This document shows, one piece after another, positions 7,185 through 63,933 of a stretch of DNA of 64,000 nt. A program made the translations under genes and the position numbers. The DNA comes from an uncultured Chloroflexia bacterium (lineage in GTDB: Bacteria; Chloroflexota; Limnocylindria; QHBO01): the NCBI GenBank assembly GCA_963783725.1, contig CAWAOJ010000002.1, positions 2,045,279 to 2,109,278 of the forward strand. The letters run 5' to 3'. The stretch's first letter is position 1. Every line of letters starts with the position of its first letter. The notes beneath the pieces are model-generated. The model saw only the letters and a list, made by a program, of their open reading frames with translations. It was not told the origin of the DNA and did no database searches.

Positions 7185-7218
7185 GTTGCACCCGATCTCT
7201 CGTTGCACCCGATCTCTC
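7185..7218. promoter_or_regulatory. Perfect tandem duplication of the 17-bp unit GTTGCACCCGATCTCTC in the mreB / ClC divergent promoter region.
   Basis: Seen directly in the sequence: two adjacent identical 17-mers about 55 bp upstream of the mreB start. Confidence 0.4.
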
Positions 7219-48360: not shown

Positions 48361-48499
48361 GACGTCCGCCACGACGTACCAGGACAAATGGCTCGTGCGG
48401 ACGCCGTTGACAGCCGCTTATACTGGCGCCGGTTCGCGTTGGGCACGACGCAATCCGGGCAAACGCTCGGGCGTACGCGGACGAAGGGTGAGGGAACGC

Positions 48500-49165
48500 G
48501 TGGAGCAGATCTCCCAGCGTCAGGCTGCGGCCGATTCGGCGTCCCTATCGAGACTGCTCTATTACTTCACCAAGCGCCTCGTCGACATCTTCGGATCGGC
48601 GCTCCTGCTCGTCGTGCTCTCGCCGCTGATGGTCGCCATCGCCGCCGCGATCTGGCTCGACTCCGGCCTTCCCGTCATCTACCGATGCCAGCGCCTGGGC
48701 CGATACGGCGAGCCGATCACCGTCCTCAAGTTCCGCACCATGCGCAACGGCAGCCACCATCACCTCGAGGAGCTGCTCACCGTGGACGAGGAGCGGCGGC
48801 TGGAGTACGGCGTCAACAAGAAGCTGCGCAACGATCCGCGACGCACCCGCATCGGTACATTCCTCCGTCGGGCATCCCTCGACGAGCTCCCGCAGCTGGC
48901 GAACGTGCTGGTCGGGCAGATGAGCCTCATCGGCCCGCGACCGTACTTCGCCGACGAGCTTCGCGGCCGCTCGGAGGCAACCGAGCTGCTGAGGGTCCGC
49001 CCCGGCATCACCGGCCTGTGGCAGGTCAACGGGCGCTCCGACCGCACCTTCGAGGAGCGAGTGGCGCTGGAGAGCGACTACGTCCAGCGCCGCGGCTTCG
49101 TCCTCGACGCCATGATCGCGCTGCGCACCGTGAAGGCTGTCGTCTCCGGCCGCGGCGCCTACTAG
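48500..49165 (+). CDS. Bacterial sugar transferase (small WbaP/EpsL/PssY-type polyprenyl-phosphate hexose-1-phosphate transferase).
   Basis: PF02397-type blocks ([46 protein letters not shown]). A GTG start at 48500 was chosen; the track ORF starts at 48395. Confidence 0.75.
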
Positions 49166-49223
49166 CACCGGCTTTCCGGGCCCTCCCGTCGGCGTCCCGC
49201 CGATCCTCTGCTAGATTGCGGCC

Positions 49224-50528
49224 ATGAACATCACCGTCATCGGCGCCGGCTACGTCGGCCTCGTCACCGGCGTGAGCCTCGCGCGGACCGGTGATCACCA
49301 GGTCACCTTCGTCGAGAAGGACCCCTCTCGCGTCGCCGAGCTGCGCGCCGGCAAGATGCCGATCGAGGAGCCGGGCCTGGTGGAGGCGTTCGCGGAGAAC
49401 GGCGATCGCATCAACGTCGTGGACTCGCTGGAGGGCGCCGAGCGGCCGGACCTCGTCTTCGTCGCGGTCGCGACGCCGGTGGACGAGAACGGCGACCCGA
49501 ACCTGGCCCAGATCCATTCGGTGCTGGCCGACCTGCGGCCGTACCCGGAGGTGGACGTGAGCGTGCGCAGCACGCTACCCCCGGGCTTCTCGTCGCGCCT
49601 GGCGACGCTGCTCGGGCGTGCCGACAACGCGCGCATCTCCACCAACCCCGAGTTCCTGCGCCAGGGATCGGCGCTGCACGACTTCGCGCACCCGTCGCGC
49701 ATCGTGGTCGGCCGCTTCCCTGACACCTCGCAGGAGCATCTCGACAAGGTCGCCGCCGCGTACGGGCCCATCGAGGCGCCGCGCATGGTCGTCGACGTCG
49801 CCGCCGCCGAGCTGATCAAGAATGTCGCGAACGGCTTCCTGGCGCTCAAGCTCTCCTTCGTCAACGAGGTCGCCGCGCTCAGCGAGGAGTACGGCGTGCA
49901 GGTCGAGGAGGTGCTCGACGGCATCGCGCTCGATCCCCGCATCGGTTCGTCGTACATGCGCCCCGGGCTGGGCTTCGGCGGCTCGTGCCTGCCCAAGGAG
50001 CTGCAGGTGCTGTCCGCCGCGGGGCGCCGCCAGGGGCTCGCCATGCACATCGCCCGCGCCGCCGCACAGGTCAACGTCGAGCAGCAGGACCGATTCGCGC
50101 GCCGCGTCCTGAAGGAGGTTCCTGCCGGCGGCCGGGTCGGCATGCTGGGCCTGAGCTTCAAGGCCAACACCGACGACCTGCGCGGATCGCCCGCCATCCA
50201 CGTGGCGCGGCGCCTGATCGAGGCCGGCGTCGAGGTGGTGGCCTACGACCCCGCGGTGCGTGCCGAGCGCGCGCGAGCGGGCGCGCCGGGCATCGAGATC
50301 GCGGACGAGGAGCTCGACGTCTTCACCGATGCGGACGCCGTCGTGATCGCCACCGAGTGGCCGCAGTTCGGCCGCCTCGACCTTGCCGCAGCGGGGTCGC
50401 GCATGCGCGCGCGGCGGCTGTTCGACGGCCGCGGGATGGTCGATCCGCAGTCCGCCCTCGCCGCCGGCTTTGCCTATCGCGGCGTCGGCCGCCGCTCGCT
50501 CGATCCGGAGACCCAGGCCGTCTCGTAG
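49224..50528 (+). CDS. ugd: UDP-glucose 6-dehydrogenase family (nucleotide-sugar dehydrogenase).
   Basis: MNITVIGAGYVGLVTG Rossmann N-terminus and a GFGGSCLPKE catalytic-Cys block. Confidence 0.8.
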   Translation: MNITVIGAGYVGLVTGVSLARTGDHQVTFVEKDPSRVAELRAGKMPIEEPGLVEAFAENGDRINVVDSLEGAERPDLVFVAVATPVDENGDPNLAQIHSVLADLRPYPEVDVSVRSTLPPGFSSRLATLLGRADNARISTNPEFLRQGSALHDFAHPSRIVVGRFPDTSQEHLDKVAAAYGPIEAPRMVVDVAAAELIKNVANGFLALKLSFVNEVAALSEEYGVQVEEVLDGIALDPRIGSSYMRPGLGFGGSCLPKELQVLSAAGRRQGLAMHIARAAAQVNVEQQDRFARRVLKEVPAGGRVGMLGLSFKANTDDLRGSPAIHVARRLIEAGVEVVAYDPAVRAERARAGAPGIEIADEELDVFTDADAVVIATEWPQFGRLDLAAAGSRMRARRLFDGRGMVDPQSALAAGFAYRGVGRRSLDPETQAVS

Positions 50529-50529
50529 G

Positions 50530-51992
50530 TCAGGCTCGGCGCCGGCGACGGAATGACTTCGGAGACCGTGGTCGAGATCCGTTGTTCGCACGATTCGAAG
50601 CGCGATCACGCTGACGGGATAGGCGAGAACGCAGCCGAGTCGCCAAGCAAGCGTGTCTGGCCCGAGCAGCGCCGCCCCTGCCAATACCCCGCCGATGCCC
50701 AGCGTTGCCATCACGCGCGGGTAATCCCAGGCTACGGGGTAGTAGCGCTGTGAGATCCATCCCGAGGCTGACGACGAGCTGGGCATAGCTGAACAGCGAC
50801 GCGTACGCCGCACCCATGTAGCCAAACCGTGGTACCAGCGTCAGGTTGAGCAGAACGTTCCCGATCGCCGCCGCCCCCATGGTGAAAGGGAGCCAGCGCG
50901 TTTGCGACTGCAGGTTGATTCCGGTCGTGACGATCGTATACGAGCCGTAGAGCACGGAGGAGAAGGCGCTGAATGGCACGACGAATCGCGCTGCTTCGAA
51001 CTGGTGCCCGAGAAGGATTCTTATCGCGTCGGTCCCGATGGAGGACAGCCCCACGGCTGCTCCGACTGCCGCGACGATGTAGACGGTGAGAACTCTGCTG
51101 AAGACTCGCGGCGCGTCGGCTGACCGCGAAATCTCCCAGTAGGCGGCGCCCCAGGCGAGCGCAAACGGTGCCACCGCGATCGCGGTGACGATCAGGCCCG
51201 CGGTATACCCCGACGAATAGATTCCGGCAGCACTGAAGCCATCAACGGCCTTCACCACATAGCGGTCCGAAAGGTTTAGACCCCACGAGGCGATGGAGGC
51301 GGGAACAAGGGGCAGGCTGAAGAGCAGCATGTAGCGCATCAGGCGCGGATCCCAGGCGAGTCGCAGCCGTGTGGTCTTGATCAGCGCCAGCACCCCGATG
51401 CGTCGTCGCGACGAGCGCCGAGATCGTGGAGCCCAACACCACGCCGAGCGGTCCAAGGTGCATAACGACGACGAAAACGATGATCAGCACGCTGCCGAGG
51501 ATCGACGCGGGTGAAGCTGATCGCGACGTATGGGCCGGGGCGTCGCTGCGCACGCAGATACGACAGTGGGACCGTGTTCACCGAATCGAAGAAGACGATG
51601 GGGCCGATCAAGAGAATCAGGGGCAGTTCGCCGGAGTCGCCGCCGAAAACGAGGAGCGTGAGAGGAACTGCGACGAGGCTGAACAGACCCAAGAAGATGA
51701 TCGACGCGGTGAGCCTGAGGGCAGCCGTGACGGCGAGGACGTGGGCCTTCTCTTGCTCGGTCGTCGCTTCCTTGAGATAGGAGCGGAAGAACGCCCATGG
51801 CAGCGCGAGGACACCGATCATCGATGCGAGAGACAGCGTCGCGTTTATGACGGCGACCACGCCGTAACCGCTGGTAGCGAGCTGGCGCGCGTAGATTGGC
51901 ACCAAGATGATGTTCAGGGCCTGATTGGCGACCCCGCCGATGCCGTAGACAACAGACTCGCGAAGAAGACCGGGCAGCAGCCGGCGTGTCAT
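50530..51992 (-). pseudogene. Wzx-type (PST family) polysaccharide flippase, broken into three frames.
   Basis: The N-terminal part is 51992-~51480 (LRESVVYGIGGVANQALNIIL...), the middle part is in the frame of ORF 50530-51456 and the C-terminal part in the frame of ORF 49575-50825. This gives at least two frameshifts (~51400-51480 and ~50790-50830). Confidence 0.5.
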
Positions 51993-53214
51993 CGGCGGGG
52001 CCGGACAGTGGAGTCGAGCCAGGCCACGATTTCCTCGAGCTCAGCGTCGAGCCGCTGCGGCGAATGGAACTGCTCGATGTAGCGACGCGCTCTTGCGCCG
52101 CGTCCGTGCCGAACTGCTGGATGATCCGCGAAACGGGCGATCGCCGATGGTGATCGCCGCGGCGTCATCGACGTCAACCGCCACCCCGCGCCCGTCGTCG
52201 AGCATCTCGCGGTGAACGCGCGGTTCGGTGGTCGCGATCACCGGAAGCCCGCTGGCCATCGCCTCGAGCACGGCATACGGAGTGTTCGCGCCCTGCCTAC
52301 CCGCGTAGACGAAGAGGTCGGACGCACGCAGCAGGAGTGCCACGGCATCGGGATCAAGCTCACCTAGGAACCGCGCCTCTAGGCCCGAGCTCGGACGGCG
52401 TTCCAGCGAGCGCGGAGCGGTCCGTCGCCGCCGAACGCGAGCAGAACGGTCGCGTGGCAGGTGCCAGCGCGGCGACCGCGATCGATCAGCATCCAGCCCC
52501 TTCTCGGGTGCCAGGCGGCTGACGCTGCTGACAATGATGCGGTCCCGCGGAAGCGCAGAGCGGAGCGCGCAATCCGCTTGACTTCACCAGCGATCGCCGG
52601 CCGGAAGCGCTGAAGGTCGACCGGGAAGTGGTACCGACGCATGCGCAGATGCGCAGGGATGCCCGCAGCCACATACGCCGCCGCGCTCTCGTCGCCCGCG
52701 AGCAGCACACCGTCGGCCAGACGCACGCAGGCCAGTGGAGAAGGCGGGCGGACGCCCACAGCAGGGGCTTCGTCGGCCGGTCCCGGAGCCGGCGCATCAC
52801 CACGCGTTCGCGCCAGTAGTAATGGCTGCGAACCGCTGTTGCGTTGCCGTGCTCCATGACCATCACGGGCGTCTGCGTCAGGCGGCCCGCCAGCGCCGCT
52901 GCCGCCCCGGTCGCGACCGAGTCTTGCGGCAGCAGGAACGATGCGCTCCTGCGTGGCGCGGGCGCAGGCCCAGCACATGCGCCCCGCGTAGATCCAGATG
53001 GCCGGGAAGCGCATCGGCCCGCCGAACCGGCCGCCGACCGAGATCACTGCCGGGTCGAGCCGCGACCGAGTCGGGGCCGTGGCTGATACCCGCACCCGCT
53101 GCCGTGGTGCTCGAGCCTGGGCCAGATGCTCGAGCATGACCGTCAGCGTGCCTCCCCGTGCAAGCGCGGTCACCGCAAAGACGAATCGCTGCGGCTGCCT
53201 CGTCTGCACGCCGG
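51989..53214 (-). pseudogene. GT4-family glycosyltransferase, disrupted by at least three frameshifts.
   Basis: GT4 fragments lie in different frames: N-terminus (VQTRQPQRFVFAVTALARGGT...), middle (VRLADGVLLAGDES...) and C-terminus (YAVLEAMASGLPVIAT...; ...RRYIEQFHSPQRL...). Confidence 0.5.
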
Positions 53215-53318
53215 TGACTATACCGAAGGCCGCCCGGGTCGCTGATATACTTCGCCCTCCCGCCCGGCTGGCTCCTGCCATGCTGCGCGCCGCTCGAGAG
53301 GCATGATCCGCAACGCCC

Positions 53319-54491
53319 ATGACTGATCCGACGGCCCGCCCTCGGGTCACCATGCTCGTCCGCAACGCCTTCACCCACGACACGCGCGTCGAGCGCGAGG
53401 CGCGCTCTCTCGCCGCGGCCGGCCATCGGGTGACGATCGTCGCCGAGGCGAGGCCGGGGCTCCCGCTGCGCGAGGAGAAGGCGAGTGCCAGCGTGATTCG
53501 CGTTCCGCGACCGCTCGCGCGCGTGCCGGCGCTGCGCTTCCTGGCGTACGTGTGGCGGCTCCAATCGGTCGTCGAGAAGACCCGGCCCGACGTCCTGCAT
53601 GCCCATGACACCGATGCGCTGCAGTCGATGGGGCCTGCCGCCCGGCGCCTGGGCGTTCCCTTCGTCTACGACGCGCACGAGCTGTGGCTTGGCCGGGCCG
53701 CGCGCGGGCATTCGGGCGTCTACGACCGGCTGGCGCGTGCCTACTACGGGCTGGTCGAGCGACGCCACGTCCCGCGTGCCGCGGCGGTGATCGTGGCGAA
53801 TCCCGGCGTCGGGCCCGAACTAGAGCGCCGTTACGGCATACGCGGCGTGCGCGCGGTGCCGAACTACCCCGTCGAGACCGGGCCGGTCGAGCGCCGCGAG
53901 CTGCGCTCCCTGCCGGGGGGCGACCGCATCCCGCACGACGCGCCGATCGTGCTGTACAGCGGCGGGATCACCATCGATCGCGGCATCGAGCAGCTCGTGC
54001 AGGCCATGACCGAGGTCCCCGACGCGCACCTCGTCTTCATGGGTGGCGGCGGACTGGAGCCGGAGATCCGCCGCCTGGTGTCGCAGCTCGGCCTCGACGA
54101 TCGGGTCCACTTCCTGGGCATGGTGCCCAGCGACGAGGTGGTGGCCTACACCGCATCGGCCACCGTCGGCGTGCTCAGCACCGTGCCGGTCAGCCTCAAC
54201 AACGTGCTGGCGCTGCCGAACAAGATCTTCCAGTACATGGCGGCGGGCATCCCGCTCGTCGCCAGCGACTACCCGCAGATTCGCGAGGTCGTGGAGGGCT
54301 CGGGCGCCGGGCGGGTGATGGACTCCTCGGACCCCTCGGCCATCGCGGCGGCCCTGCGCGCGGTGCTCGCCGACCCCGATGCGGCACGCGCCGCGGGGGA
54401 GCGGGGCCGCGCCGCGGTCGTCAGCACCTACCATTGGGCGGTATCCGAGCGGACGCTGCTCGAGGTCTATCGGCAGGTGGAGGGCGCATGA
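53319..54491 (+). CDS. GT4-family glycosyltransferase, intact.
   Basis: PRVTMLVRNAFTHDTR N-terminus, AHD..A motif and a C-terminal NKIFQYMAAGIPLVASD block. Confidence 0.8.
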   Translation: MTDPTARPRVTMLVRNAFTHDTRVEREARSLAAAGHRVTIVAEARPGLPLREEKASASVIRVPRPLARVPALRFLAYVWRLQSVVEKTRPDVLHAHDTDALQSMGPAARRLGVPFVYDAHELWLGRAARGHSGVYDRLARAYYGLVERRHVPRAAAVIVANPGVGPELERRYGIRGVRAVPNYPVETGPVERRELRSLPGGDRIPHDAPIVLYSGGITIDRGIEQLVQAMTEVPDAHLVFMGGGGLEPEIRRLVSQLGLDDRVHFLGMVPSDEVVAYTASATVGVLSTVPVSLNNVLALPNKIFQYMAAGIPLVASDYPQIREVVEGSGAGRVMDSSDPSAIAAALRAVLADPDAARAAGERGRAAVVSTYHWAVSERTLLEVYRQVEGA

Positions 54492-55803
54492 CGGAGCTGG
54501 CGGATCCGCGCATCGCGGTCATCGGGCTGGGCTACGTCGGCTTGCCGTTGGCGCTCGACCTCGCGGACGCGGGCTACGACGTGCTGGGCATCGAGGCATC
54601 GCCGGAGCGGCTGGCCCAGCTGCGCGCAGCCGACAGCTACGTTGACGACGTCCCGTCTTCGCGGCTGCAGGCGGCGTACGACGCGGGTCGCTTCCGGGTC
54701 GGCGACACCGACACCCCATGGACCGATGCGGACGTCGCCTTCATCTGCGTCCCCACGCCGGTGACGGCGAGCCGCGAGCCGGACCTGCGTCCGGTGCTGG
54801 CGGCGGGCGAGTACGTCCGCGCCGGGCTGCGTCGCGGCGACATGGTGGTGCTGCAGAGCACGACCTACCCGGGCACGACCGTCGGGCCGCTGCGAGATGT
54901 CCTCGAGCGGGACGGGCTGCGGGCCGGGACCGATTTCGGCCTCGCCTTCTCGCCGGAGCGCGTCGAGTCCGGGCGAGGGCCGCCCTTCGTCCAGCATCCC
55001 GCGCCTGGTGGGCGGCACCGATGCGGCGACCACGGCGCGGGCGTCGGCGATCCTGGGCAAGGTGGCCCCATCGGTCACGGAGATGTCCAGCCCCGACGCC
55101 GCGGAGCTGGCCAAGCTGTTCGAGAACGTCTTCCGCAACGTCAACATCGCGCTGGTCAACGAGCTCGCGCTGATCTGCGAGCGCCTTGGCCTGGACGTGT
55201 GGGAGGTGATCCGCGGCGCGTCGACCAAGCCGTTCGGCTTCATGCCCTTCTACCCCGGGCCGGGCGTGGGCGGCCACTGCATCCCGGTCGACCCGTACTA
55301 CCTCGCCGCGCGCGCCCGCGAGGTCGGCGTGCAGGAGCGCTTCATCGAGACCGCTGGCGACATCAACTCGCGCATGCCGGAGCACGTCGTGCGGCTGGTG
55401 CAGGAAGGGTTGAACGAGCGATCGAAGCCGCTGCGCGGCTCATCGGTCCTGGTGCTCGGGGTGGCGTTCAAGCCGGGCGTCTCGGACGCCAGGAACTCGC
55501 CGGCGGCCGGCGTCATCGCCGGGCTGCAGCAGCGCGGAGGGATCGTCAGCTACCACGACCCGCGCCTGCCGCACTTCGACCCGCGGCACGAGACGGGAGA
55601 TGGGCGAGCCGCTCGACAGCACGCCGCTCGCGGAAGCGCTCGACGCCGATCCCGACTGCGTGGTGATCGTCACGCCGCACGCCGAGATCGACTTCGACGC
55701 GGTCTTCGCGCGCTGCGACCTGGTGATGGACACGCGCGACGTCTCCCACGATCGCTCGGTTCGCCCGGGACAGGTGCTCAAGCTCGGCGCGGGCTGGAGC
55801 TAG
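54488..55803 (+). pseudogene. UDP-N-acetyl-D-hexosamine 6-dehydrogenase family (WbpA/WecC-like), with two frameshifts (~54990 and ~55600).
   Basis: The N-terminus (MTELADPRIAVIGLGYVGLPLA) is in frame 2, the middle (..NELALICERLG...GGHCIPVDPYYL...) in the frame of ORF 54897-56594 and the C-terminus in the frame of ORF 55600-55803. The feature length is not a multiple of 3. Confidence 0.55.
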
Positions 55804-56909
55804 CGCACCCGCTCCAGGACCGCGACGATCCGTTCGGCCGCGTGGCCGTCCCACAGCGGCGGCGTGCGAGCGGCGCCCGGATCCTCGCGAAGGCGCGCTC
55901 CAGCTGCCGGACCGATGCGGCCCGGATCGGTCCCGATCAGGCGGTTGGTGCCCTCGGTGATCGTGATCGGTCGCTCGGTGTTGTCGCGGAAGGTGAGGCA
56001 CGGCACGCCGAGCACCGTGGTCTCCTCCTGGATGCCGCCCGAATCGGTCAGCACCAGCCGGGCATGGGCCTCGAGGCGCAGGAAGTCGAGGTAGCCCGAC
56101 GGCGGGATCGCGCTGATCAGCGGGGCGTCGAGCGCGAGGCCGGCCGCGTCGGCCACCGCGCGCGTGCGCGGATGGATCGGGAAGACGACCGGCAGCGGGG
56201 CGCCGCGCGAGCGCGCCTCAGGATCGGCCGCAGCTGCTGCGGGTCGTCCACGTTGGCGGGCCGGTGCAGCGTCACGAGCAGGTACTCGCCCGGCGGCGAG
56301 CCCGAGCTTCGCCAGCGGGCCGCGGTCGGGCGCCTCGCCGCGGTGGCGCTCCAGCGTGTCGATCATGGTGTTGCCGACCAAATGGATCTGCGTCCGGCGC
56401 GTGGCCCTCGTCGCCGAAGGTTCCCGTCGGCGTCGGCCGAGGTGGTGAAGAGGATGTCGCTGAGCGCGTCGGTCACGATGCGGTTGATCTCCTCGGGCAT
56501 CGTCCGGTCGAACGAGCGCAGCCCGGCCTCCACGTGCGCCAGGCGGCACGCCGCGCCTTGGCGGCGACCACGCTGCAGGCGAGGGTCGAGTTGACGTCGC
56601 CGAACGACCATCACCAGGTCGGTCGCGTCGCCTCGAAGCAGCTGCTCGAAGCTCGACCATCACGCGGCCGGTCTGCTCGGCGTGCGAGCCGGAGCCGACG
56701 CCCAGGTGGACGTCCGGATCGGGCGATGTCCAGGTCCCGCGAAGAAGGCCCCGCTCATCGCGGCGGTCGTAGTGCTGGCCGGTGTGCACGAAGCTGGTCG
56801 CGAACCGGTCCCGGCCGTCGCAGGGCAGCGCAGCACCGGCGCCGCCTTCATGAAGTTGGGCCGCGCGCCGGCGACGAGCGATGATCCGCAGCGTCAGCTG
56901 CCCCGCCAC
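55800..56909 (-). pseudogene. Second UDP-GlcNAc 2-epimerase (WecB-like) copy, with at least three frameshifts.
   Basis: An intact C-terminal half (IHLVGNTMIDTL...LTDSGGIQEET...) and N-terminal blocks ([28 protein letters not shown]) that lie in two other frames. Confidence 0.55.
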
Positions 56910-56910
56910 G

Positions 56911-57444
56911 TCAGCGCCACGTTCCCGGCTCGACGTCCCTCGGTCCGCTTCCGCTCCTCATCGCGTCGTCGATGATCCGCCACGCCTCGTCCACGCCCAC
57001 CCAGCCCTTGATATCGGTCTCGCGCTTCTCGAGGGTCTTGTAGGTCTGGAAGAAGTTCTCGATCTCCACCAGCCGATGCGGCGAGACGTCCTCGAGCGCG
57101 TTCGCCCCCTCCCAGCGCGGGTCGTCGTGCGCCACGGCGAGGATCTTGTAGTCGTGGCCCTTCTCGTCGGCCATGTCGAGCGCGCCGATCGGCCGCGCGC
57201 GCACCACGCAGCCCGGAAAGGTCGGCTCGCTGATCACCACCAGCACGTCGAGCGGGTCGCCGTCCTCGGCCAGGCTGCCGTCGATGAAGCCGTAGTCGCA
57301 CGGGTAGTGGACGCTGCTGTACAGCACGCGGTCGAGCACGAACCGATGCTTCACGTGGTCGTACTCGTACTTGTTGCGGCTGCCGGCGGGGATCTCGACG
57401 GTGACCTCCAGCATCCCGCGGCCCGGTCGCGCCTCGTCGTTCAC
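56911..57444 (-). CDS. ppa: Family I inorganic pyrophosphatase.
   Basis: EIP.GS.NKYEYD and DGDPLDVLV motifs. An alternative start is the Met at 57414. Confidence 0.85.
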   Translation of the reverse strand: MNDEARPGRGMLEVTVEIPAGSRNKYEYDHVKHRFVLDRVLYSSVHYPCDYGFIDGSLAEDGDPLDVLVVISEPTFPGCVVRARPIGALDMADEKGHDYKILAVAHDDPRWEGANALEDVSPHRLVEIENFFQTYKTLEKRETDIKGWVGVDEAWRIIDDAMRSGSGPRDVEPGTWR

Positions 57445-57485
57445 GCGCTCAGTATGCGACGGGGGAGCGTGCCGGGGCCCGGATA

Positions 57486-57693
57486 TCGGCCCTGGCGATA
57501 ATTCCGCGTCAGAACCGGCCGCCAGCCCCCAATTGACGCGGTTTCATCGGCCCTGGCGATAATTCCGCGTCAGAACCGGCCGCCAGCCCCCAATTGACGC
57601 GGTTTCATCGGCCCTGGCGATAATTCCGCGTCAGAACCGGCCGTCCTGCCCCCAATTGACGCGGTTTCATCGGCCCTGGCGATAATTCCGCGC
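57486..57693. repeat. Tandem direct repeat: 61-bp unit x3.4 (three full units plus a ~25-nt partial). Each unit carries TTGACG-N19-GATAAT and an 8-bp inverted repeat TGACGCGG/CCGCGTCA.
   Basis: Seen directly in the sequence. Units begin at 57486, 57547 and 57608 with a partial at 57669. The third unit has a 3-nt variant. Confidence 0.8.
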
Positions 57694-57739
57694 CAGAGCT
57701 GGCCCGCAGACGCCGCGACCGCCGTACCGGTCGCCTGAT

Positions 57740-57856
57740 GACCCCTTAAGTCCGAAGTGGCGCGCGATTCTCTGCGTACGGGGTCGAAAACGGTCCGGTA
57801 TGAGCACCGATGCGGCCACTCCCGACCATAAGGTCCCGAGTCGGACCCCTTAGCGC
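57740..57856. repeat. Copy 1 of a ~120-nt intergenic repeat element, starting GACCCCTTAAGT and ending GACCCCTTAGCG.
   Basis: About 80% identical to copy 2 at 58319-58442. Contains the core CGTACGGGGTCGAA and internal palindromic arms GACCCC...GGGGTC. Confidence 0.6.
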
Positions 57857-58272
57857 GTGTCCGAGTCACCGAGGACCGAGCCCCGAGCGCCCCCGCGCCA
57901 GAGCGCACCGGCGACCGCGATCGCGGCAATCCCGGCGCAGCCCAGCCCCACGATAAGCGCCGGCAGCAGCGACGGGTTGTACGTGCCAGCCCCCGCGTAG
58001 TGGATGCCGCCCAGGCTCGAGCAGACGGTGCTCGAGACGCCGCCCACGATCCCCGTCGCGGTGCAGCCGAACGGTGCGACCGCCAGGTAGCCGATGTCGA
58101 ACGCCACGACGGCCGCGAGTGCGGGCCACAGGATCAGCCGCCGCCGGCGGAACGGGGATACGACCAGCATGGCGGCACCCAGCAGAAGGAACGGTTGACC
58201 GATGGTGAAGCCAGCCACGAAGCCGAATACCAGCAGCGCGACCGCCACGATCCAGTAGCCCATCACCCGCAT
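57850..58272 (-). CDS. Small hydrophobic membrane protein (~140 aa, 4 predicted TM), function unknown.
   Basis: Only the distal 140 codons of track ORF 57850-58692 look protein-like (MRVMGYWIVAVALLVFGFVAGF...). The upstream part is low complexity. Confidence 0.45.
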   Translation of the reverse strand: MRVMGYWIVAVALLVFGFVAGFTIGQPFLLLGAAMLVVSPFRRRRLILWPALAAVVAFDIGYLAVAPFGCTATGIVGGVSSTVCSSLGGIHYAGAGTYNPSLLPALIVGLGCAGIAAIAVAGALWRGGARGSVLGDSDTR

Positions 58273-58318
58273 TGTCGGCCAGGAATCAAGTCCGGCCTGG
58301 CGGTACCGGGCCCCTGGC

Positions 58319-58442
58319 GACCCCTTAAGTGGCGCGACAGCGCGATTCCCTGCGTACGGGGTCGAGATCGGACCGGTATGTCGGCCGACACGGGCCGATG
58401 CGGCCACTCCCGAGTTAAGGTCCCGAATCCGACCCCTTAGCG
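58319..58442. repeat. Copy 2 of the ~120-nt intergenic repeat element.
   Basis: Aligns with 57740-57856 along its length with two short indels. Its end overlaps the stop codon of the GH15 gene. Confidence 0.6.
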
Positions 58443-60401
58443 GGTCGGCGATCTCCTCCGCTGCCCCGCCCCGTTCCCATGCCCGTTCGCGGCGTGCCGT
58501 GGCGAGAGCGACGTCGGTCGGTCCGCGCCCCGCTGCTCGGCCGCCTCCGCGGCGATGAGGTGCGTCACCGCGTTGATCAGCGCCAGGTGGGTGAACGCCT
58601 GCGGGAAGTTTCCGAGGTGGCGCCCGGTCTCCGGGTCGATCTCCTCGCCGTACAGGCCCAGGTCGCTGGCGAGGGCGAGCAGCTTCTCGCACAGGCTGCG
58701 CGCGCGTCGCACCTCGCCGATCTCCACCAGCGCGGAGACGAGCCAGAAGGAGCAGATGGTGAAGGCGCCCTCGTGGCCGGAGAGGCCGTCATCGGTCTCG
58801 TCCGTGCGGTAGCGCAGGACCAGCCCGTCGTCGGTCAGCTCGTCCGCGATGGCGAGCACGGTGCGCCGGATGCGGTCGTCATCGGGCGGCAGGAAGCGCA
58901 CCAGCGGCATGAGCAGGACCGATGCGTCCAGCGCGTCGCTGCCGTACGACTGCGTGAAGACGCCGCGCTTGTCCACGGCGTTCGCGCAAATGTCGGCCTT
59001 GATCTCGTCGGCGGCGGCGCGCCAGCGGGCCATCCGCTCGTCGTCGCCGCGCAGCTCGGCCAGCAGCGCCCCGCGATCGGCCGCCACCCAGCACATCACC
59101 TTGGAGGACGTGAAGTGGCGCGGCTCGCCGCGGACCTCCCAGATCCCGCGGTCCGGCTCCCGCCAGTGCTCCAGCGCGGAGTCCACCAGCCGCACCAGGA
59201 TCGGCCAGATGCGCTCGTCCAGGTGATCGGTGGACTTGGTGTGCAGGTAGAACGAGTCGAGCACCGCGCCCCACACGTCGTGCTGGGTCTGGCCGAAGGC
59301 GCCGTTGCCGATGCGGACCGGCTGCGCGCCCTCGTAGCCCCGGAGGTGCGAGAGGATCGTCTCGTCGGGGACCGGGTCGCCCTCGAGCGTCGTCATCACG
59401 GGGAGCCGCTCGTAGCGCTCGGCGACCTCGGCGATGAAGTGCAGATAGTCGTTCGCCTCCCAGTCGAAGCCGAGCGTGTAGAGGCCCCACAGCGCGAAGG
59501 TCGAGTCGCGGATCCAGGTGTAGCGGTAGTCCCAGTTGCGCTCGCCGCCGGGCGTCTCCGGCAGCGAGGTCGTGGCCGCGGCCGCCACCGCCCCCGTCGG
59601 CCCGTAGGTGAGCCCCTTCAGGGTCAGCGCCGAGCGCTCGAGCGCGGCGCGCCAGGGATGGTCGGGGAACGTCCCGCGCGCCAGCCAGTGCTGCCAGTGG
59701 TGGGCGGTCCAGACCAGCCGTCGATACGCCTCGTCGGTGGTGGTGGGCGAGGCGTTGAGGCCCCACGACAGCGCGCAGAAGCGGGTCTCGCCCTCCTTGA
59801 TCAGCGTCCGGCCGAGCGCGCGCGGGCCTTCCGCGCCGAGGTTGATGTCGCTGGTCAGGGTGAGCGCGATCTCCTCGCCGTCACCGCGACACACCATCTG
59901 GCGGTAGCCGGCGCCTGCGTACTCCCACGTCCCCAGCCGGCGGCCGTAGTCGAAGACCGGCTCGCAGTCGATGGTGAGCTGCACGGCGCCGTTCACGCAG
60001 CGGACCATGCGCAGCAGGATGTGCTCCGCGTCGTAGTCGGTCGGCGCGCGGCGCTGCGACTCCGAGCGCTCCTCCTCATGTCGCCAGGGACCGATGAGCA
60101 GCACGTCGCGGATCACGACCCATCCCTGGCTGGTGCCCCAGCTCGTCTCGAGCACCATGGTGCCGGGCAGGTAGCGGCGCGCGGCCGGCACCTCGACGTC
60201 CGAGGGCCCGAAGCGGAAGCCGCCCGCCGTGCGGTCCAGCAGCGCGCCGAAGACGCTGGGCGAGTCCACGCGAGGCAGGCACAGCCATTCGACGTTGCCC
60301 GACGGCGCGATGAGCGCCATGTTCTCGCAGTCGGAGAGGAACCCGTAGTCGGCGATGGGCGGGAACTGCGACGCCCCGTACGGCACGTCGAGGCCCGGCA
60401 T
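58437..60401 (-). CDS. GH15-family glycoside hydrolase (glucoamylase/trehalase-like).
   Basis: 654 aa with the GH15 (alpha/alpha)6 catalytic-domain pattern (..WIRDSTFALWGL.., ..SSKVMCWVA..), as in actinobacterial GH15 trehalases. Confidence 0.8.
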   Translation of the reverse strand: MPGLDVPYGASQFPPIADYGFLSDCENMALIAPSGNVEWLCLPRVDSPSVFGALLDRTAGGFRFGPSDVEVPAARRYLPGTMVLETSWGTSQGWVVIRDVLLIGPWRHEEERSESQRRAPTDYDAEHILLRMVRCVNGAVQLTIDCEPVFDYGRRLGTWEYAGAGYRQMVCRGDGEEIALTLTSDINLGAEGPRALGRTLIKEGETRFCALSWGLNASPTTTDEAYRRLVWTAHHWQHWLARGTFPDHPWRAALERSALTLKGLTYGPTGAVAAAATTSLPETPGGERNWDYRYTWIRDSTFALWGLYTLGFDWEANDYLHFIAEVAERYERLPVMTTLEGDPVPDETILSHLRGYEGAQPVRIGNGAFGQTQHDVWGAVLDSFYLHTKSTDHLDERIWPILVRLVDSALEHWREPDRGIWEVRGEPRHFTSSKVMCWVAADRGALLAELRGDDERMARWRAAADEIKADICANAVDKRGVFTQSYGSDALDASVLLMPLVRFLPPDDDRIRRTVLAIADELTDDGLVLRYRTDETDDGLSGHEGAFTICSFWLVSALVEIGEVRRARSLCEKLLALASDLGLYGEEIDPETGRHLGNFPQAFTHLALINAVTHLIAAEAAEQRGADRPTSLSPRHAANGHGNGAGQRRRSPTR

Positions 60402-60526
60402 GCGGGTCGTCCCGTTGTGCTTCTCATTCGCTTGCCTGACTACTCACTAGGCATTCAGTCTGCCACTGGCATGCCACCACGCAAAGAGGACCAACGGAGT
60501 TGGTCTCGACGTGGTTCCGCGCGCGG

Positions 60527-61270
60527 CTATCGGATGCGGCCGAACGCCAGGAGAGCGCCGAACTTCAGATACGCCGGCAGGCGGTGCAGCCGGCGCGGCT
60601 CACGCACGAACTGGTACGCCCATTCCAGCCCGATGCGCTGAACGACGACCGGCGCGCGCGGCTTTCGTCCGGCATAAACGTCGAAGCTTCCCCCGACGCC
60701 CATGTACAGCGCCGGATGCGCCTCGTAGAGCGCGCTCATGAGCACTTCTTGCCGCGGTGAGCCCATGCCCACGAATACGAGTTCCGGCTTAGTTGTTTGG
60801 AACTCCCGCACGAGTTCCTCGAGGTCGCCAACCTTGAGGAATCCATCGCGGAAATCGAGCGACACGCCTGGATGGCGCTTGCGGAGCCTCGCAGCGACCG
60901 ACTCAATGACTGGGCGTCTAGCGCCGATGAGATAGATCCGCTTCGTACTGGCGTACTGAGCGACAATCCGCTGCCACAAATCTGCTCCGGCGATCCGGAC
61001 GGCTGGGATCCCAAGCCGCCGGAGCGCGATAACCGCACCCATTCCGTCCGGATAGGCAACATTGTGGTTGGCGACATCGCGAAGCGTCGCATCGGCGCGA
61101 GCGAACTTCTCGGCATTGACGGCGACAAGCAGTCCGGTAGCTTCGCCCGCGAGGGTGACGAGCTCTTCGTCGCTGGTCGGAGCAAAAGTTGAGAAACGTC
61201 GGATATAGCGATGCTGAAACTTCGCTTGGGCACGGTCCCGGAGAGGACTGCTCCGCAGCTTCGTCGTCAC
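60527..61270 (-). CDS. WecG/TagA/CpsF-family (GT26) N-acetylmannosaminyl-type transferase.
   Basis: GT26 blocks (YPDGMGAV, IYLIGARRPVIE, VFVGMGSPRQE, YMGVGGSFDV). GTG start inferred; the upstream part of the track ORF overlaps the divergent GT4 gene. Confidence 0.7.
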   Translation of the reverse strand: MTTKLRSSPLRDRAQAKFQHRYIRRFSTFAPTSDEELVTLAGEATGLLVAVNAEKFARADATLRDVANHNVAYPDGMGAVIALRRLGIPAVRIAGADLWQRIVAQYASTKRIYLIGARRPVIESVAARLRKRHPGVSLDFRDGFLKVGDLEELVREFQTTKPELVFVGMGSPRQEVLMSALYEAHPALYMGVGGSFDVYAGRKPRAPVVVQRIGLEWAYQFVREPRRLHRLPAYLKFGALLAFGRIR

Positions 61271-61375
61271 TGGCCGAGGGTACTTGTCTTCCAGTCTTGC
61301 TGCTTTGGTTTCGCACGGCCGGGGGGTCCCGGTCGCTAGGCTAGACAAACGATTGCCGAGCACTGAGAGACCACG

Positions 61376-62479
61376 TTGCGCATCCTCGTGATCACGAATC
61401 TCTACCCAGATCACAAGCAGCCGGCGTTTGGCACCTTCATTTCTGCCCATGTCGAAGCGCTGAGAAGAGCTGGCGCGGAGGTCGACGTGGCTGCCATTCG
61501 TGGAGTCGCCGCGCATGAGCATGTCGCGCGAAAGTACGGCGCGCTGTGCCTGACCGCACTGGCCAGCGCCGCACGCGCCCTGCTCCATGGCTCCCGACCG
61601 GATGTCGTGGAGGCGCATATCGCCTATCCCACGGGCATCATCGCTTGGCCGATCGCGCGGCTGATCGGAGCGCAGCTGGTCCTCTACGTCCACGGCGCGG
61701 ACGTCCATGAGGTCGGGAGGCGGTCGGGCGCGCACCACCGCCTGGCGCGGTTTGTGTTCGCACGCGCGGATCTCGTCGTTGTCAACAGTAGATATAGCGA
61801 ACAGAGCCTGCTCCACGGCTACGGCGTCGCGCCACAGAAGGTCGTGGTGTGGAGTCCTGGTATCGATATCGATCACTTTCCCTCGATGCCCGACGTTTCC
61901 CGTGATCCACACCAGGTGCTATTCGTCGGTAGGTTGAGTGATCAGAAGGGCGTGGACGTGCTACTCACGGCCGTGGCACGGCTCGACACCGCCGTCTCAC
62001 TCCGAATTATCGGTGACGGGCCAGCGCGAGCCTCACTGGAGGCTGAGGCAGCGATCCTCGGGCTCGATGTCCGATTCGACGGAGCCGTTGAGCCGAGTGT
62101 TGTCGCCGGAGCCATGGCGCAGTGTGGCGTTCTCGCCGTTCCCTCGAAATACGGCGAGGCGCTCGGTCTCGTGGCGCTGGAGGGCATGGCGTCCGGCGCC
62201 CTGGTCATCGCCTCCCGGACCGGCGGCCTCACGGAGACAGTGGAAGACGGCGTGAACGGATTCCTGGTTCCGCCGGGAGACCCTGAGGCCCTTGCAAGCT
62301 GCATCGGGCACGCGCTCCGGCTTTTCGATGGTGGCGGCGAGGCGATGCGCGTCCTCACGACGGCTGCCCGAGAGCGGGCGGCAGACCACGACATCAATAC
62401 AGTGACGCGTGAGGTGGTGGCTGCATACTCCAAGCTTGTGAGCACAGCGCCCTCCGCCAGTACGGATCACGGTCGGTGA
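61376..62479 (+). CDS. GT4-family glycosyltransferase.
   Basis: MRILVITNLYP N-terminus and an EA.GLVALEGMASGALVIAS C-terminal block. Confidence 0.8.
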   Translation: MRILVITNLYPDHKQPAFGTFISAHVEALRRAGAEVDVAAIRGVAAHEHVARKYGALCLTALASAARALLHGSRPDVVEAHIAYPTGIIAWPIARLIGAQLVLYVHGADVHEVGRRSGAHHRLARFVFARADLVVVNSRYSEQSLLHGYGVAPQKVVVWSPGIDIDHFPSMPDVSRDPHQVLFVGRLSDQKGVDVLLTAVARLDTAVSLRIIGDGPARASLEAEAAILGLDVRFDGAVEPSVVAGAMAQCGVLAVPSKYGEALGLVALEGMASGALVIASRTGGLTETVEDGVNGFLVPPGDPEALASCIGHALRLFDGGGEAMRVLTTAARERAADHDINTVTREVVAAYSKLVSTAPSASTDHGR

Positions 62480-63933
62480 ACGACAGCCTCCACCTGCTTC
62501 TGGCCGTTGCCATAGTCTCTGCCGGCTGGGTCGCGTGCAATCTGATATCACGCTGGCAGCGGTGGGCCGGCGCGGGTCCACTGGCGTTGCTTGCGGCGGC
62601 TCCGCTTGTCCCGCATATCGAAGTTATCAGCCGGTTGTCGACCGACGATCTGCTACCGCTCCTCGGGCTGGCTTTGCTGCTCCCGACGGTGCCGCGCCCG
62701 CAGATGACGCGCAGACGGCTGTGGCGCACCGGTCTCATGGCCGTCTTGGGTGCGATCTTGATGCGCGTGTTGACCACACTCGCGCACGAGGCATCGGCGC
62801 TGGACGCCGTAATGACCATGACTGCGGCCGTGCTCCGACCGCTGTTCCTCGTCGCGGTCGTGATTTATGTCGCGCGGGCAGCCGCCGATCCGGATCGTCG
62901 GGCGTGGATCGCGAAATCCCTCGCCTTGGTCGCGACGTTCGAAGCGGCATTCAGCCTGCTGATGTTCGTTATACCCGTTCCCGGCGTTGGAGTCCGCGAA
63001 GGGCTGTGGTATGAGAGCCTTGCGGGCTGCGGCCTCAGGATTACCGGCACCCTCGGTCTCTCTGCCAACCACATCGGCGCGGTGTTCGTGGTCGCGATTC
63101 CTGTGACGGTCGGCGTCGCGATCACGACCCTGAGGCGCGCGCGCTACGCTTGGGCGGCCGCGGCTGGGGTTCAGGGGGCAGCGCTCGTCTTCACATTCAC
63201 CCGGGCGTCAATCCTCCTCGGCCTCGTCGCCGGTGGGCTGCTGCTGCTGTATTACCTCCAAGTCCGCCTCGCCGCGGTGGCCGCGGGCGTCTTGCTCCTC
63301 GTTCTCGCCGGCGTTACGTCGTACGCATGCGCTCCTAACGCGCCGATAACACCGCGCTCGAGTCAGTCACCAGCCAGCGCGCCGAGCGCGACATCGTCCG
63401 CGTCCGGCCCATCGCCAACATCAGCGTTGCAGTCTCCTGGTGAGGGAGAGGGAATCATCAATCGCTTCACCGATCCAAGCGACCGCTTGGCTCTGTGGTA
63501 TGCGGCGTTCCAGATCACCGTGGATCACCCGCTTCTTGGGGTCGGTATCGGGAACATGGTTAACGTCATTCGGAGTGACCCCGCGCGCTACGCGGACACG
63601 CCCTTCGGCAAGGCGACCAATTCCGCGCACAACACGATCCTCTTAGCGGGCGCGGAAACAGGCCTCCCGGGGGCGCTCAGCACTCTCGCCATCAACGTGG
63701 TCCTCGCGTTGGGCGCGCTGGAGGCCTGCCTCTTCGGGCGTCGCTACCCTCTGGCGGTCGCGGCCGGCATCGCCAGCCTGGCGTTCTTGGCACAGGGAAT
63801 GGTCAACAACCTCTTCACGGTGCCGGCAACGGGAACGCTTCTCGCGATCCTCATCGCGATCATCGTTGCGACACCGTCGGTTCGCCGCGGGCCTGGGCTG
63901 CCGGGCAGTGGCGCTCACCGGCTGGTGGCCTAG
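62476..63933 (+). CDS. O-antigen ligase/polymerase-like (Wzy_C) polytopic membrane protein.
   Basis: FTFTRASILLGL motif and at least 10 TM segments. ATGA overlap with the upstream GT4 gene. Confidence 0.65.
   Translation: MNDSLHLLLAVAIVSAGWVACNLISRWQRWAGAGPLALLAAAPLVPHIEVISRLSTDDLLPLLGLALLLPTVPRPQMTRRRLWRTGLMAVLGAILMRVLTTLAHEASALDAVMTMTAAVLRPLFLVAVVIYVARAAADPDRRAWIAKSLALVATFEAAFSLLMFVIPVPGVGVREGLWYESLAGCGLRITGTLGLSANHIGAVFVVAIPVTVGVAITTLRRARYAWAAAAGVQGAALVFTFTRASILLGLVAGGLLLLYYLQVRLAAVAAGVLLLVLAGVTSYACAPNAPITPRSSQSPASAPSATSSASGPSPTSALQSPGEGEGIINRFTDPSDRLALWYAAFQITVDHPLLGVGIGNMVNVIRSDPARYADTPFGKATNSAHNTILLAGAETGLPGALSTLAINVVLALGALEACLFGRRYPLAVAAGIASLAFLAQGMVNNLFTVPATGTLLAILIAIIVATPSVRRGPGLPGSGAHRLVA

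Follow-up and report, generated by a model that had tools for sequence, protein, structure and literature searches.

MIRUs are a dispersed family, present at dozens of loci, whose small ORFs overlap the neighbouring genes at their stop and start codons. REPs are also dispersed, in hundreds of copies, and alternate in orientation within BIMEs. In sites of the sopC type an inverted repeat lies within every one of the direct repeats, and sopC and iteron arrays, with periods of 43 or 22 bp, keep helical phase and are neighbours of plasmid par or rep genes. In Mycobacterium tuberculosis, tandem repeats with units of 54–58 bp are found 12–29 bp upstream of leaderless genes and vary in copy number (VNTR3690 at lpdA, QUB15 at cysG and the repeat of the dop promoter), and modulation or insulation of the promoter has been proposed as the effect of these promoter repeats (PMC12817950).

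The window analysed here, a stretch of DNA of 64 kb, contains an array of a 61-bp unit in the intergenic region upstream of ppa, a gene that is very probably leaderless. Comparison with described systems suggests that the array is a further case of a known kind, for which the promoter tandem repeats of M. tuberculosis are the nearest precedent (PMC12817950). The unit, of 61 bp as against 54–58 bp, is present in few head-to-tail copies in a high-GC genome, the array lies directly upstream of the promoter of a leaderless gene, and a promoter-like sequence is found within the unit. Two features of a promoter-proximal VNTR, a non-coding unit of ~40–100 bp repeated head to tail (here 61 bp × 3.6) and an adjoining leaderless promoter, are present; the behaviour that defines a VNTR is variation in copy number between strains or within a population. 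The likeness is incomplete: in M. tuberculosis the repeat comes to within 12–29 bp of the gene and includes the gene-facing promoter, and its variation in copy number is documented, whereas the array described here stops 40 bp before the start codon, excludes the conserved −10 hexamer and carries its best hexamer pair facing away from the gene.

With MIRUs the array shares tandem units of 40–100 bp placed between co-oriented genes. It differs in occupying a single locus, as judged from the 64 kb and from public collections, and in its 12-codon mini-ORF (ATG...TGA), which lies inside the unit, overlaps no flanking gene and loses its frame in unit 3 through a 1-nt insertion. The REP and BIME elements of enterobacteria and pseudomonads are extragenic imperfect palindromes of 35–40 nt, clustered between same-strand genes, and the palindrome of the array, at 39 nt, is of the same size and setting; unlike those elements, however, the copies in the array are all direct, and neither the rest of the window nor the public collections searched contain another.

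Architecture of the tandem array

A TRF run over the 64-kb window returned one outstanding array with a period of 61, 96% matches and no indels scored, far ahead of the other repeats of the window in strength (Table 1). An earlier note, made from the letters of the sequence, had described a 61-bp tandem repeat present 3.4 times; the head-to-tail repeat is real, and its copy number by TRF is 3.6. Successive copies start 61, 61 and 62 nt apart, and core words of 21 and 25 nt recur four and three times, respectively, where shuffled sequences give an expectation of 0.

Each unit joins a 39-bp imperfect palindrome to a 22-bp C-rich linker, GAACCGGCCGCCAGCCCCCAAT. The palindrome, TGACGCGGTTTCATCG-GCCCTGG-CGATAATTCCGCGTCA, has 16-nt arms that pair at 13 of 16 positions, a 7-nt loop and exact outer 8-mers. 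The 8-bp inverted repeat that the earlier note had ascribed to each unit belongs to a strong palindrome, in which TGACGCGG-N23-CCGCGTCA is exact in two units and degenerate in the third, where the outer arm reads CCGCGCCA.

Units 1 and 2 are identical (100%). Unit 3 does differ from them, as had been noticed, although the difference is not a 3-nt variant (GCCAGC to TCCTGC) but a T inserted at 57644 together with an A-to-T change at 57647, both located in the linker and extending the period to 62. These differences may be sequencing errors, since the adjacent genes carry several frameshifts. The palindrome is perfectly kept in every complete copy, and the location of both inter-unit changes (2 of 2) in the linker gives a weak hint of constraint on the palindrome, with a chance probability of ~0.13. 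In the distal partial unit, the sequence decays beyond CCGCG.

The array is non-coding, with no coding signal and no Pfam domain. A coding repeat was rejected on the length of the unit, which is not divisible by 3, and two overlapping ORFs, 57570–57929 on the minus strand and 57371–57562 on the plus strand, were rejected as genes on their flat GC3 and lack of a Pfam match. The array is also not a CRISPR array, as the earlier note had recognised: the units are contiguous and the 22-bp linker is itself repeated, leaving no unique spacers. Elsewhere in the window, a second perfect tandem duplication, 17 bp × 2 at 7185–7218, is located in another promoter region.

Table 1 Features of the array and of the flanking genes, in coordinates of the window
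Feature	Position	Strand	Evidence or remark
Tandem array, 3.6 × 61-bp unit	57485–57704	.	TRF score 403; register from copy spacings
Unit 1	57485–57545		
Unit 2	57546–57606		
Unit 3 (62 nt)	57607–57668		
Unit 4, partial	57669–57704		
Sole differences among complete units	57644–57647	.	T insertion and A-to-T, in the 22-bp linker
TTGACG-N19-GATAAT, 10/12 consensus	57533–57563	+	Own scan; again at 57594–57624 and 57656–57686 (TTGACG at 57533, 57594, 57656; GATAAT at 57558, 57619, 57681)
Orphan GATAAT	57497–57502	+	
39-bp imperfect palindrome, copy 1	57534–57572	.	Inverted-repeat search, folding
39-bp imperfect palindrome, copy 2	57595–57633	.	Identical to copy 1
39-bp palindrome, copy 3	57657–57695	.	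Degenerate outer arm, CCGCGCCA
ppa, inorganic pyrophosphatase, 177 aa, GTG start	56911–57444	−	Pfam PF00719, E 1.4e-55
CATACT, ppa −10 hexamer	57451–57456	−	6 nt before GTG; conserved in relatives
Element A, ~140-nt copy of GH15 3′ flank	57716–57855	−	Begins at last two codons of the membrane ORF plus TAA
140-aa membrane ORF between elements B and A	57850–58272	−	GC3 0.89
Element B, paralogue of A	58293–58442	−	Begins at last two codons of GH15 plus TAA
GH15 glycoside hydrolase, upstream gene of the string	58437–60401	−	Pfam PF00723; 86% identical to the L026 orthologue

The probably leaderless promoter of ppa

The real genes around the array are all on the minus strand, in agreement with the ppa/membrane-protein string that the earlier note had placed opposite the hexamer pairs. 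Their order is GH15, a 140-aa membrane ORF, a 405-nt gap, ppa and a wecB-like gene, and the wider neighbourhood (ORFs at ~43.7–63.9 kb) is a polysaccharide-synthesis cluster that also includes a glutamine synthetase and an ATP-grasp protein. Homologues of the membrane ORF occur in other gene contexts, and a 2.24-Mb contig encodes a protein 100% identical to it. Frameshifts interrupt the wecB-like gene and the genes of a UDP-sugar dehydrogenase and a flippase, with their domains resuming in other frames, which may reflect an indel-rich assembly or pseudogenes.

The GTG start of ppa at 57444 is consistent with the N-terminal length of homologous proteins, the best named of which, at ~80% identity, are from Candidatus Limnocylindria (Chloroflexota). 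The start codon is preceded by the hexamer CATACT, and five related lineages (L002/L003, L004, L026/L027, L028/L029 and L030) have it as well, 7 nt before their ppa start. Within the window, the arrangement TAnnnT-6/7 nt-ATG/GTG opens seven long ORFs of high GC3, compared with 0–1 at each of the other spacings tested. No Shine–Dalgarno site precedes ppa; other genes of the window have GGAGG sites. Because CATACT is conserved 6–7 nt before the start and the leaderless signature is enriched in the genome, ppa is very probably leaderless, with its transcription start at ~57444. Conservation of CATACT as the likely −10 element of ppa, in the lineage of the window and five others, and the frequency of the leaderless signature in this genome are among the more solid results obtained from sequence comparison.

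The array ends 28 bp upstream of CATACT and 40 bp before the GTG codon, and spans positions of about −41 to −260 relative to the ppa promoter, with its best hexamer pair facing away from ppa. In the first 60 kb of the window, which were scanned for both kinds of signal, full-consensus sigma-70 promoters and U-tail terminators are at or below chance, and the recognisable promoters of this genome are of a −10-only type, TAnnnT.

A probably young array in a remodelled spacer

A relative, L026/L027, retains the synteny of GH15 and ppa (GH15 is 86% identical), with a gap of 277 nt between the two genes. This gap contains no tandem repeat and no sequence similar to the unit, and the membrane ORF that separates GH15 from ppa in the window is absent from that gap in L026. 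There are no further copies of the unit within the 64-kb window, no single-copy palindrome is found elsewhere in it, and the flanks of the array show no homology to the unit. Exact searches with a core 20-mer gave 0 matches in JGI metagenomes and 0 in viral contigs, and a blastn search of plasmids and phages gave no match to the unit. The one exact 20-mer match among GTDB representatives, located inside an ABC-transporter gene of Salinispira, was dismissed as chance. The possibility raised in the earlier note that the unit is a common dispersed element is therefore not borne out, no other copy being found in the 64 kb of the source genome or in any of these collections. The near-identity of its copies suggests that the array is young, and its absence from the collections searched and from the syntenic relative that it is lineage-specific.

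Two paralogous sequences, elements A and B, bracket the membrane ORF, and element A is the ~120-nt element that the earlier note had placed next to the array. Element A follows the membrane ORF and element B follows GH15; they are 76% identical (nhmmer E 1e-44 and 2e-47), and each contains two [C/T]TAAGGGGTC motifs and a central GACCCC able to pair with either of them. Element A also has a weak colinear alignment to the sequence after the GH15 stop codon of L026; 1.3% of shuffles attain its score of 31. Element B has neither an upstream repeat nor a promoter of the TTGACG/GATAAT type. An Rfam scan of 56500–59000, at E values of up to 10, gave no relevant match, and at the gathering threshold the whole window gave tRNA-Pro only. 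A 19-mer of the adjacent element gave no match in viral contigs; its 18 matches in metagenomes were all rejected as chance.

On the simplest reading of these sequences, the element would be the ancestral 3′ flank of GH15, of which a second copy arose as the membrane gene entered the GH15–ppa spacer. A remodelled GH15–ppa spacer, with an inserted membrane gene flanked by duplicates of the 140-nt GH15 3′ flank, is a more solid by-product of the analysis.

A putative promoter-proximal VNTR

The explanation favoured here, which we consider to have about an even chance of being correct, is that the array is an intergenic minisatellite, young and lineage-specific, and a putative VNTR of the promoter-proximal type. 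A 61-bp piece of the ancestral GH15–ppa spacer, composed of the 39-bp palindrome with its one A/T-rich patch and the 22-bp C-rich linker, would have been amplified head to tail, most likely through slipped-strand mispairing or unequal recombination, both of which a hairpin-forming palindrome would favour. The surroundings, on this view a structurally unstable spacer, have been rearranged too: the 3′ flank of GH15 is duplicated and the membrane gene inserted. Each unit would then have carried the palindrome and the sigma-70-like hexamers along with it, without their being selected as a device.

Each step in copy number would add or remove 61 bp (5.8 helical turns), and with them a hairpin and a symmetric −10-like patch, in the stretch that separates the ppa core promoter from upstream transcription. 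If such steps have an effect, it would consist in modulating the activity of the ppa promoter or in insulating it from read-through or divergent transcription, as has been proposed for the M. tuberculosis repeats of 54–58 bp that precede the leaderless genes lpdA, cysG and dop (PMC12817950). Contrary to the minisatellite explanation, the unit holds the best sigma-70 match of 128 kb, in an intergenic region where real promoters are to be expected.

If the array is a VNTR beside a leaderless promoter, a phenomenon documented mainly in mycobacteria would extend to an uncultured high-GC lineage. A promoter-proximal tandem repeat of this type would be a source of rapid variation in expression, and the array would provide a ready marker for strain-level variation in metagenomes. 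Current understanding is unchanged by these findings.

Promoter, operator and hairpin readings of the unit

A different reading takes each unit as a working promoter. Three units firing rightwards from the plus strand would yield a non-coding transcript that runs antisense to both element A and the membrane ORF. It could keep the inserted gene silent, or run into read-through transcription and thereby shield the leaderless promoter of ppa. The hexamers TTGACG and GATAAT each match the sigma-70 consensus (TTGACA/TATAAT) at 5 of 6 positions, in three copies, with A at position 2 and T at position 6 of the −10 hexamer, and the combined match of 10/12 is the best of the window on both strands (128 kb) and is intergenic. 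The rarity of GATAAT, pointed out in the earlier note, is confirmed, four of its five occurrences in 128 kb lying within the array. Three complete TTGACG-N19-GATAAT pairs are present, and the fourth GATAAT, the one nearest to ppa, is an orphan without a TTGACG partner. The palindrome covers about −36 to +3 of the putative promoter, which would be a typical position for a repressor operator, and a canonical, promoter-like TTGACC-17-TAATGT site, identified by eye upstream of the homologous gene in L025, suggests that full-consensus promoters may be used in at least one other lineage.

Against this, the spacer of 19 bp is outside the canonical sigma-70 range of 16–18 bp (optimum 17), and a standard scan with spacers of 16–18 bp called no promoter at the array because the spacer exceeds 18. 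Matches of at least 10/12 with spacers of 15–20 bp are expected by chance 0.49 times per window (128 kb, both strands) and occur at least once in 39% of shuffles, and the three copies are one duplicated event, not independent occurrences. By the GC3 test, no plus-strand gene lies downstream, to the right of the array, compared with GC3 values of 0.89–0.96 for the minus-strand genes. The −10-only style of the recognisable promoters of this genome also argues against a full hexamer pair. The 5′ arm of the next hairpin contains the predicted transcription start, leaving no neat RNA unit of promoter plus terminator; on this ground, and on the poor U-tract, tandem mini-sRNA genes, each with a promoter and a hairpin terminator per unit, were rejected.

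The suggestion of the earlier note that stacked promoters feed the adjacent element is not supported, given the chance-level match, the 19-nt spacer and the lack of a plus-strand gene downstream; in addition, the element has the orientation of the minus-strand genes, and no repeat lies upstream of its paralogue. Stacked promoters, which we regard as unlikely, remain a weak and unproven reading of the array, less likely than a recent minisatellite beside a conserved leaderless promoter, and the array is a caution against taking duplicated hexamers for stacked promoters.

The unit also resembles promoters of the MerR type, which have spacers of 19–20 bp: its −35 and −10 hexamers are good, the spacer measures 19 bp and a dyad is present. 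In those promoters the dyad lies inside the spacer, whereas the dyad of the array is centred at 57553, 5 bp towards the −10 hexamer from the centre of the spacer at 57548. A MerR-type promoter was rejected on this off-centre dyad, which extends past both hexamers, and on the absence of a MerR-family gene among the neighbours scanned.

The palindrome itself may be the functional part of the unit, as a putative site for a dimeric protein, with three to four such sites forming an operator-like or iteron-like array upstream of the ppa promoter. Its role would be regulation of ppa, a decoy or a centromere-like function (compare sopC of plasmid F). In favour, the dyad is strong and its outer arms of 8 bp are exact, the linker varies while the palindrome is invariant, and direct tandem repeats that each contain an inverted repeat match the architecture of sopC-type centromeres and iterons. 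Unlike those arrays, the period of 61 bp corresponds to 5.8 helical turns (61/10.5), which would place successive sites on different faces of the helix, and the locus is a chromosomal sugar-metabolism cluster (on a 2.24-Mb contig) with no par or rep gene nearby. The ORFs scanned at ~43.7–63.9 kb (about 10 kb on each side, apart from ORF 61376–62479) include no gene for a regulator, Rep or Par, and the window contains no single-copy site outside the array. With these points taken together, a protein-binding array is improbable. A parS site was rejected, there being one half-site-like GTTTCA only (by eye), and a Pho box, a type I toxin–antitoxin system and a G-quadruplex were rejected on sequence.

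The palindromes could instead act in RNA. Read-through transcripts of GH15 and the membrane ORF, on the gene strand, would fold into three to four GC-rich stem-loops that halt RNA polymerase, make it pause or obstruct 3′ exonucleases, in the manner of REP/BIME elements, and that insulate ppa. The leaderless ppa promoter could not make use of read-through mRNA, because ppa has no Shine–Dalgarno site. Folding of the 39-mer gives −18.8 kcal/mol on the minus strand (z −4.0) and −18.6 kcal/mol on the plus strand (z −3.5), the 61-nt unit folds at −27.9 (minus) versus −23.7 kcal/mol (plus), and the whole array folds better than its own shuffles, with z of −3.2 on the minus strand and −2.2 on the plus strand. 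Since the 39-mers alternate with the linker, hairpins are possible in two registers, the alternative one (CCGCGTCA-22-TGACGCGG) being close in stability to the first. U-tail terminators are not above chance in this window, so other termination signals may operate. However, no U-tract follows the hairpin in either register, and the near-equal energies of the 39-mer on both strands leave no strand signature, for which reason an assignment of strand by hairpin energy was rejected. Another leaderless gene of the window (41457) sits 18 nt behind its upstream gene, a gap with no room for such a device. An RNA hairpin array is accordingly a reading of low probability.

The A/T patch within the palindrome is symmetric, with GATAAT on the plus strand, AATTAT on the minus strand and A-11 and T-7 reciprocally paired. 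In the work of Warman et al. 2021, as summarised in PMC10268837, such a symmetric −10 geometry characterises bidirectional promoters, and by that model divergent transcription starts 18 bp apart would be predicted. If it fires at all, the patch could fire in both directions. The symmetry is not evidence of function, because any nAnnnT hexamer gives this geometry automatically.

A compound scheme draws these features into one device: a copy-number-variable stack of bidirectional promoter/operator modules, firing divergently from GATAAT/AATTAT under the control of a palindrome-binding protein. Its rightward RNAs would silence the membrane gene by antisense or end read-through, and the array would tune the essential leaderless ppa as a phase-variable device in an uncultured Chloroflexota-like lineage. 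We consider this scheme highly unlikely.

The weakest alternative, that noisy long-read assembly created the repeat or its number of copies, is suggested by the indel-rich assembly to which the frameshifts in the wecB-like gene, the UDP-sugar dehydrogenase and the flippase point, but is very improbable indeed: perfect duplications of 61 bp are not produced by indel noise, a single read could span so short a repeat, and ppa, GH15 and the membrane ORF are intact.

An inserted membrane-protein gene beside ppa

Comparison with the relative L026/L027 (L026, 214-3037) shows the 140-aa membrane ORF to be an insertion: in that relative the GH15 glycoside hydrolase orthologue (86% identical) is followed directly by the pyrophosphatase gene ppa after a gap of 277 nt. 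Homologues of the ORF in other genomes (L023-L025) lie in unrelated gene contexts. On both sides the ORF is flanked by one of two paralogous elements of approximately 140 nt, 76% identical to one another, each of which starts with the final two codons and the TAA of its upstream gene. The motif [C/T]TAAGGGGTC occurs twice in each element, and a GACCCC at the centre could pair with either copy. No Rfam match to the elements was found, nor were further copies in the public collections searched; the 3' flank of GH15 in L026 shows weak, colinear homology to them.

Coordinates of features in the window
Feature	Position	Strand	Remark
Membrane ORF	57850-58272	-	140 aa
~140-nt element	57716-57855	-	flanks membrane ORF
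~140-nt element	58293-58442	-	flanks membrane ORF
wecB-like epimerase	55800-56909	-	frameshift-split; conserved motifs run on in other frames
UDP-glucose/GDP-mannose dehydrogenase-family gene	54480-55800	+	as above
Polysaccharide flippase	50530-51992	-	as above
Leaderless-gene signature (TAnnnT, 6-7 nt, ATG/GTG)	57451-57456	-	CATACT of ppa
Leaderless-gene signature	41457	+
Leaderless-gene signature	49224	+
Leaderless-gene signature	7115	-
Leaderless-gene signature	39984	-

Gene neighbourhood

ppa is set in a polysaccharide-synthesis cluster (48395-63933) encoding a sugar transferase, glycosyltransferases, a flippase, WecG and a Wzy-like protein. Because several relatives (L002, L004 and L028) share this arrangement, the association appears to be conserved. 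Three neighbouring genes are split by frameshifts, with their motifs continuing in other frames, which suggests that the assembly is rich in indels or that the gene cluster is decaying.

Promoters and terminators

In the first 60 kb of the window (1-60000), neither full-consensus sigma-70 promoters (spacer 16-18) nor hairpin-plus-U-tract terminators exceeded the number expected from shuffles. TAnnnT stood 6-7 nt upstream of the start codon (ATG or GTG) in seven long ORFs of high GC3, with none or one at other spacings, and the CATACT of ppa is kept at this position in five related lineages (L002/3, L004, L026/7, L028/9 and L030). Promoters in this genome thus seem to consist of a -10 element only, and its transcripts seem to end at non-canonical signals.

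A canonical promoter-like TTGACC-17-TAATGT occurs in the relative L025 (4960-5000), approximately 25 nt upstream of the membrane-ORF homologue, so other lineages carrying this gene may have full -35/-10 promoters. A perfect 17-bp tandem duplication (two copies of GTTGCACCCGATCTCTC, 7185-7218), a second promoter-proximal tandem duplication within the window, lies immediately downstream of a -10-like TAGGGT hexamer in a divergent intergenic region.
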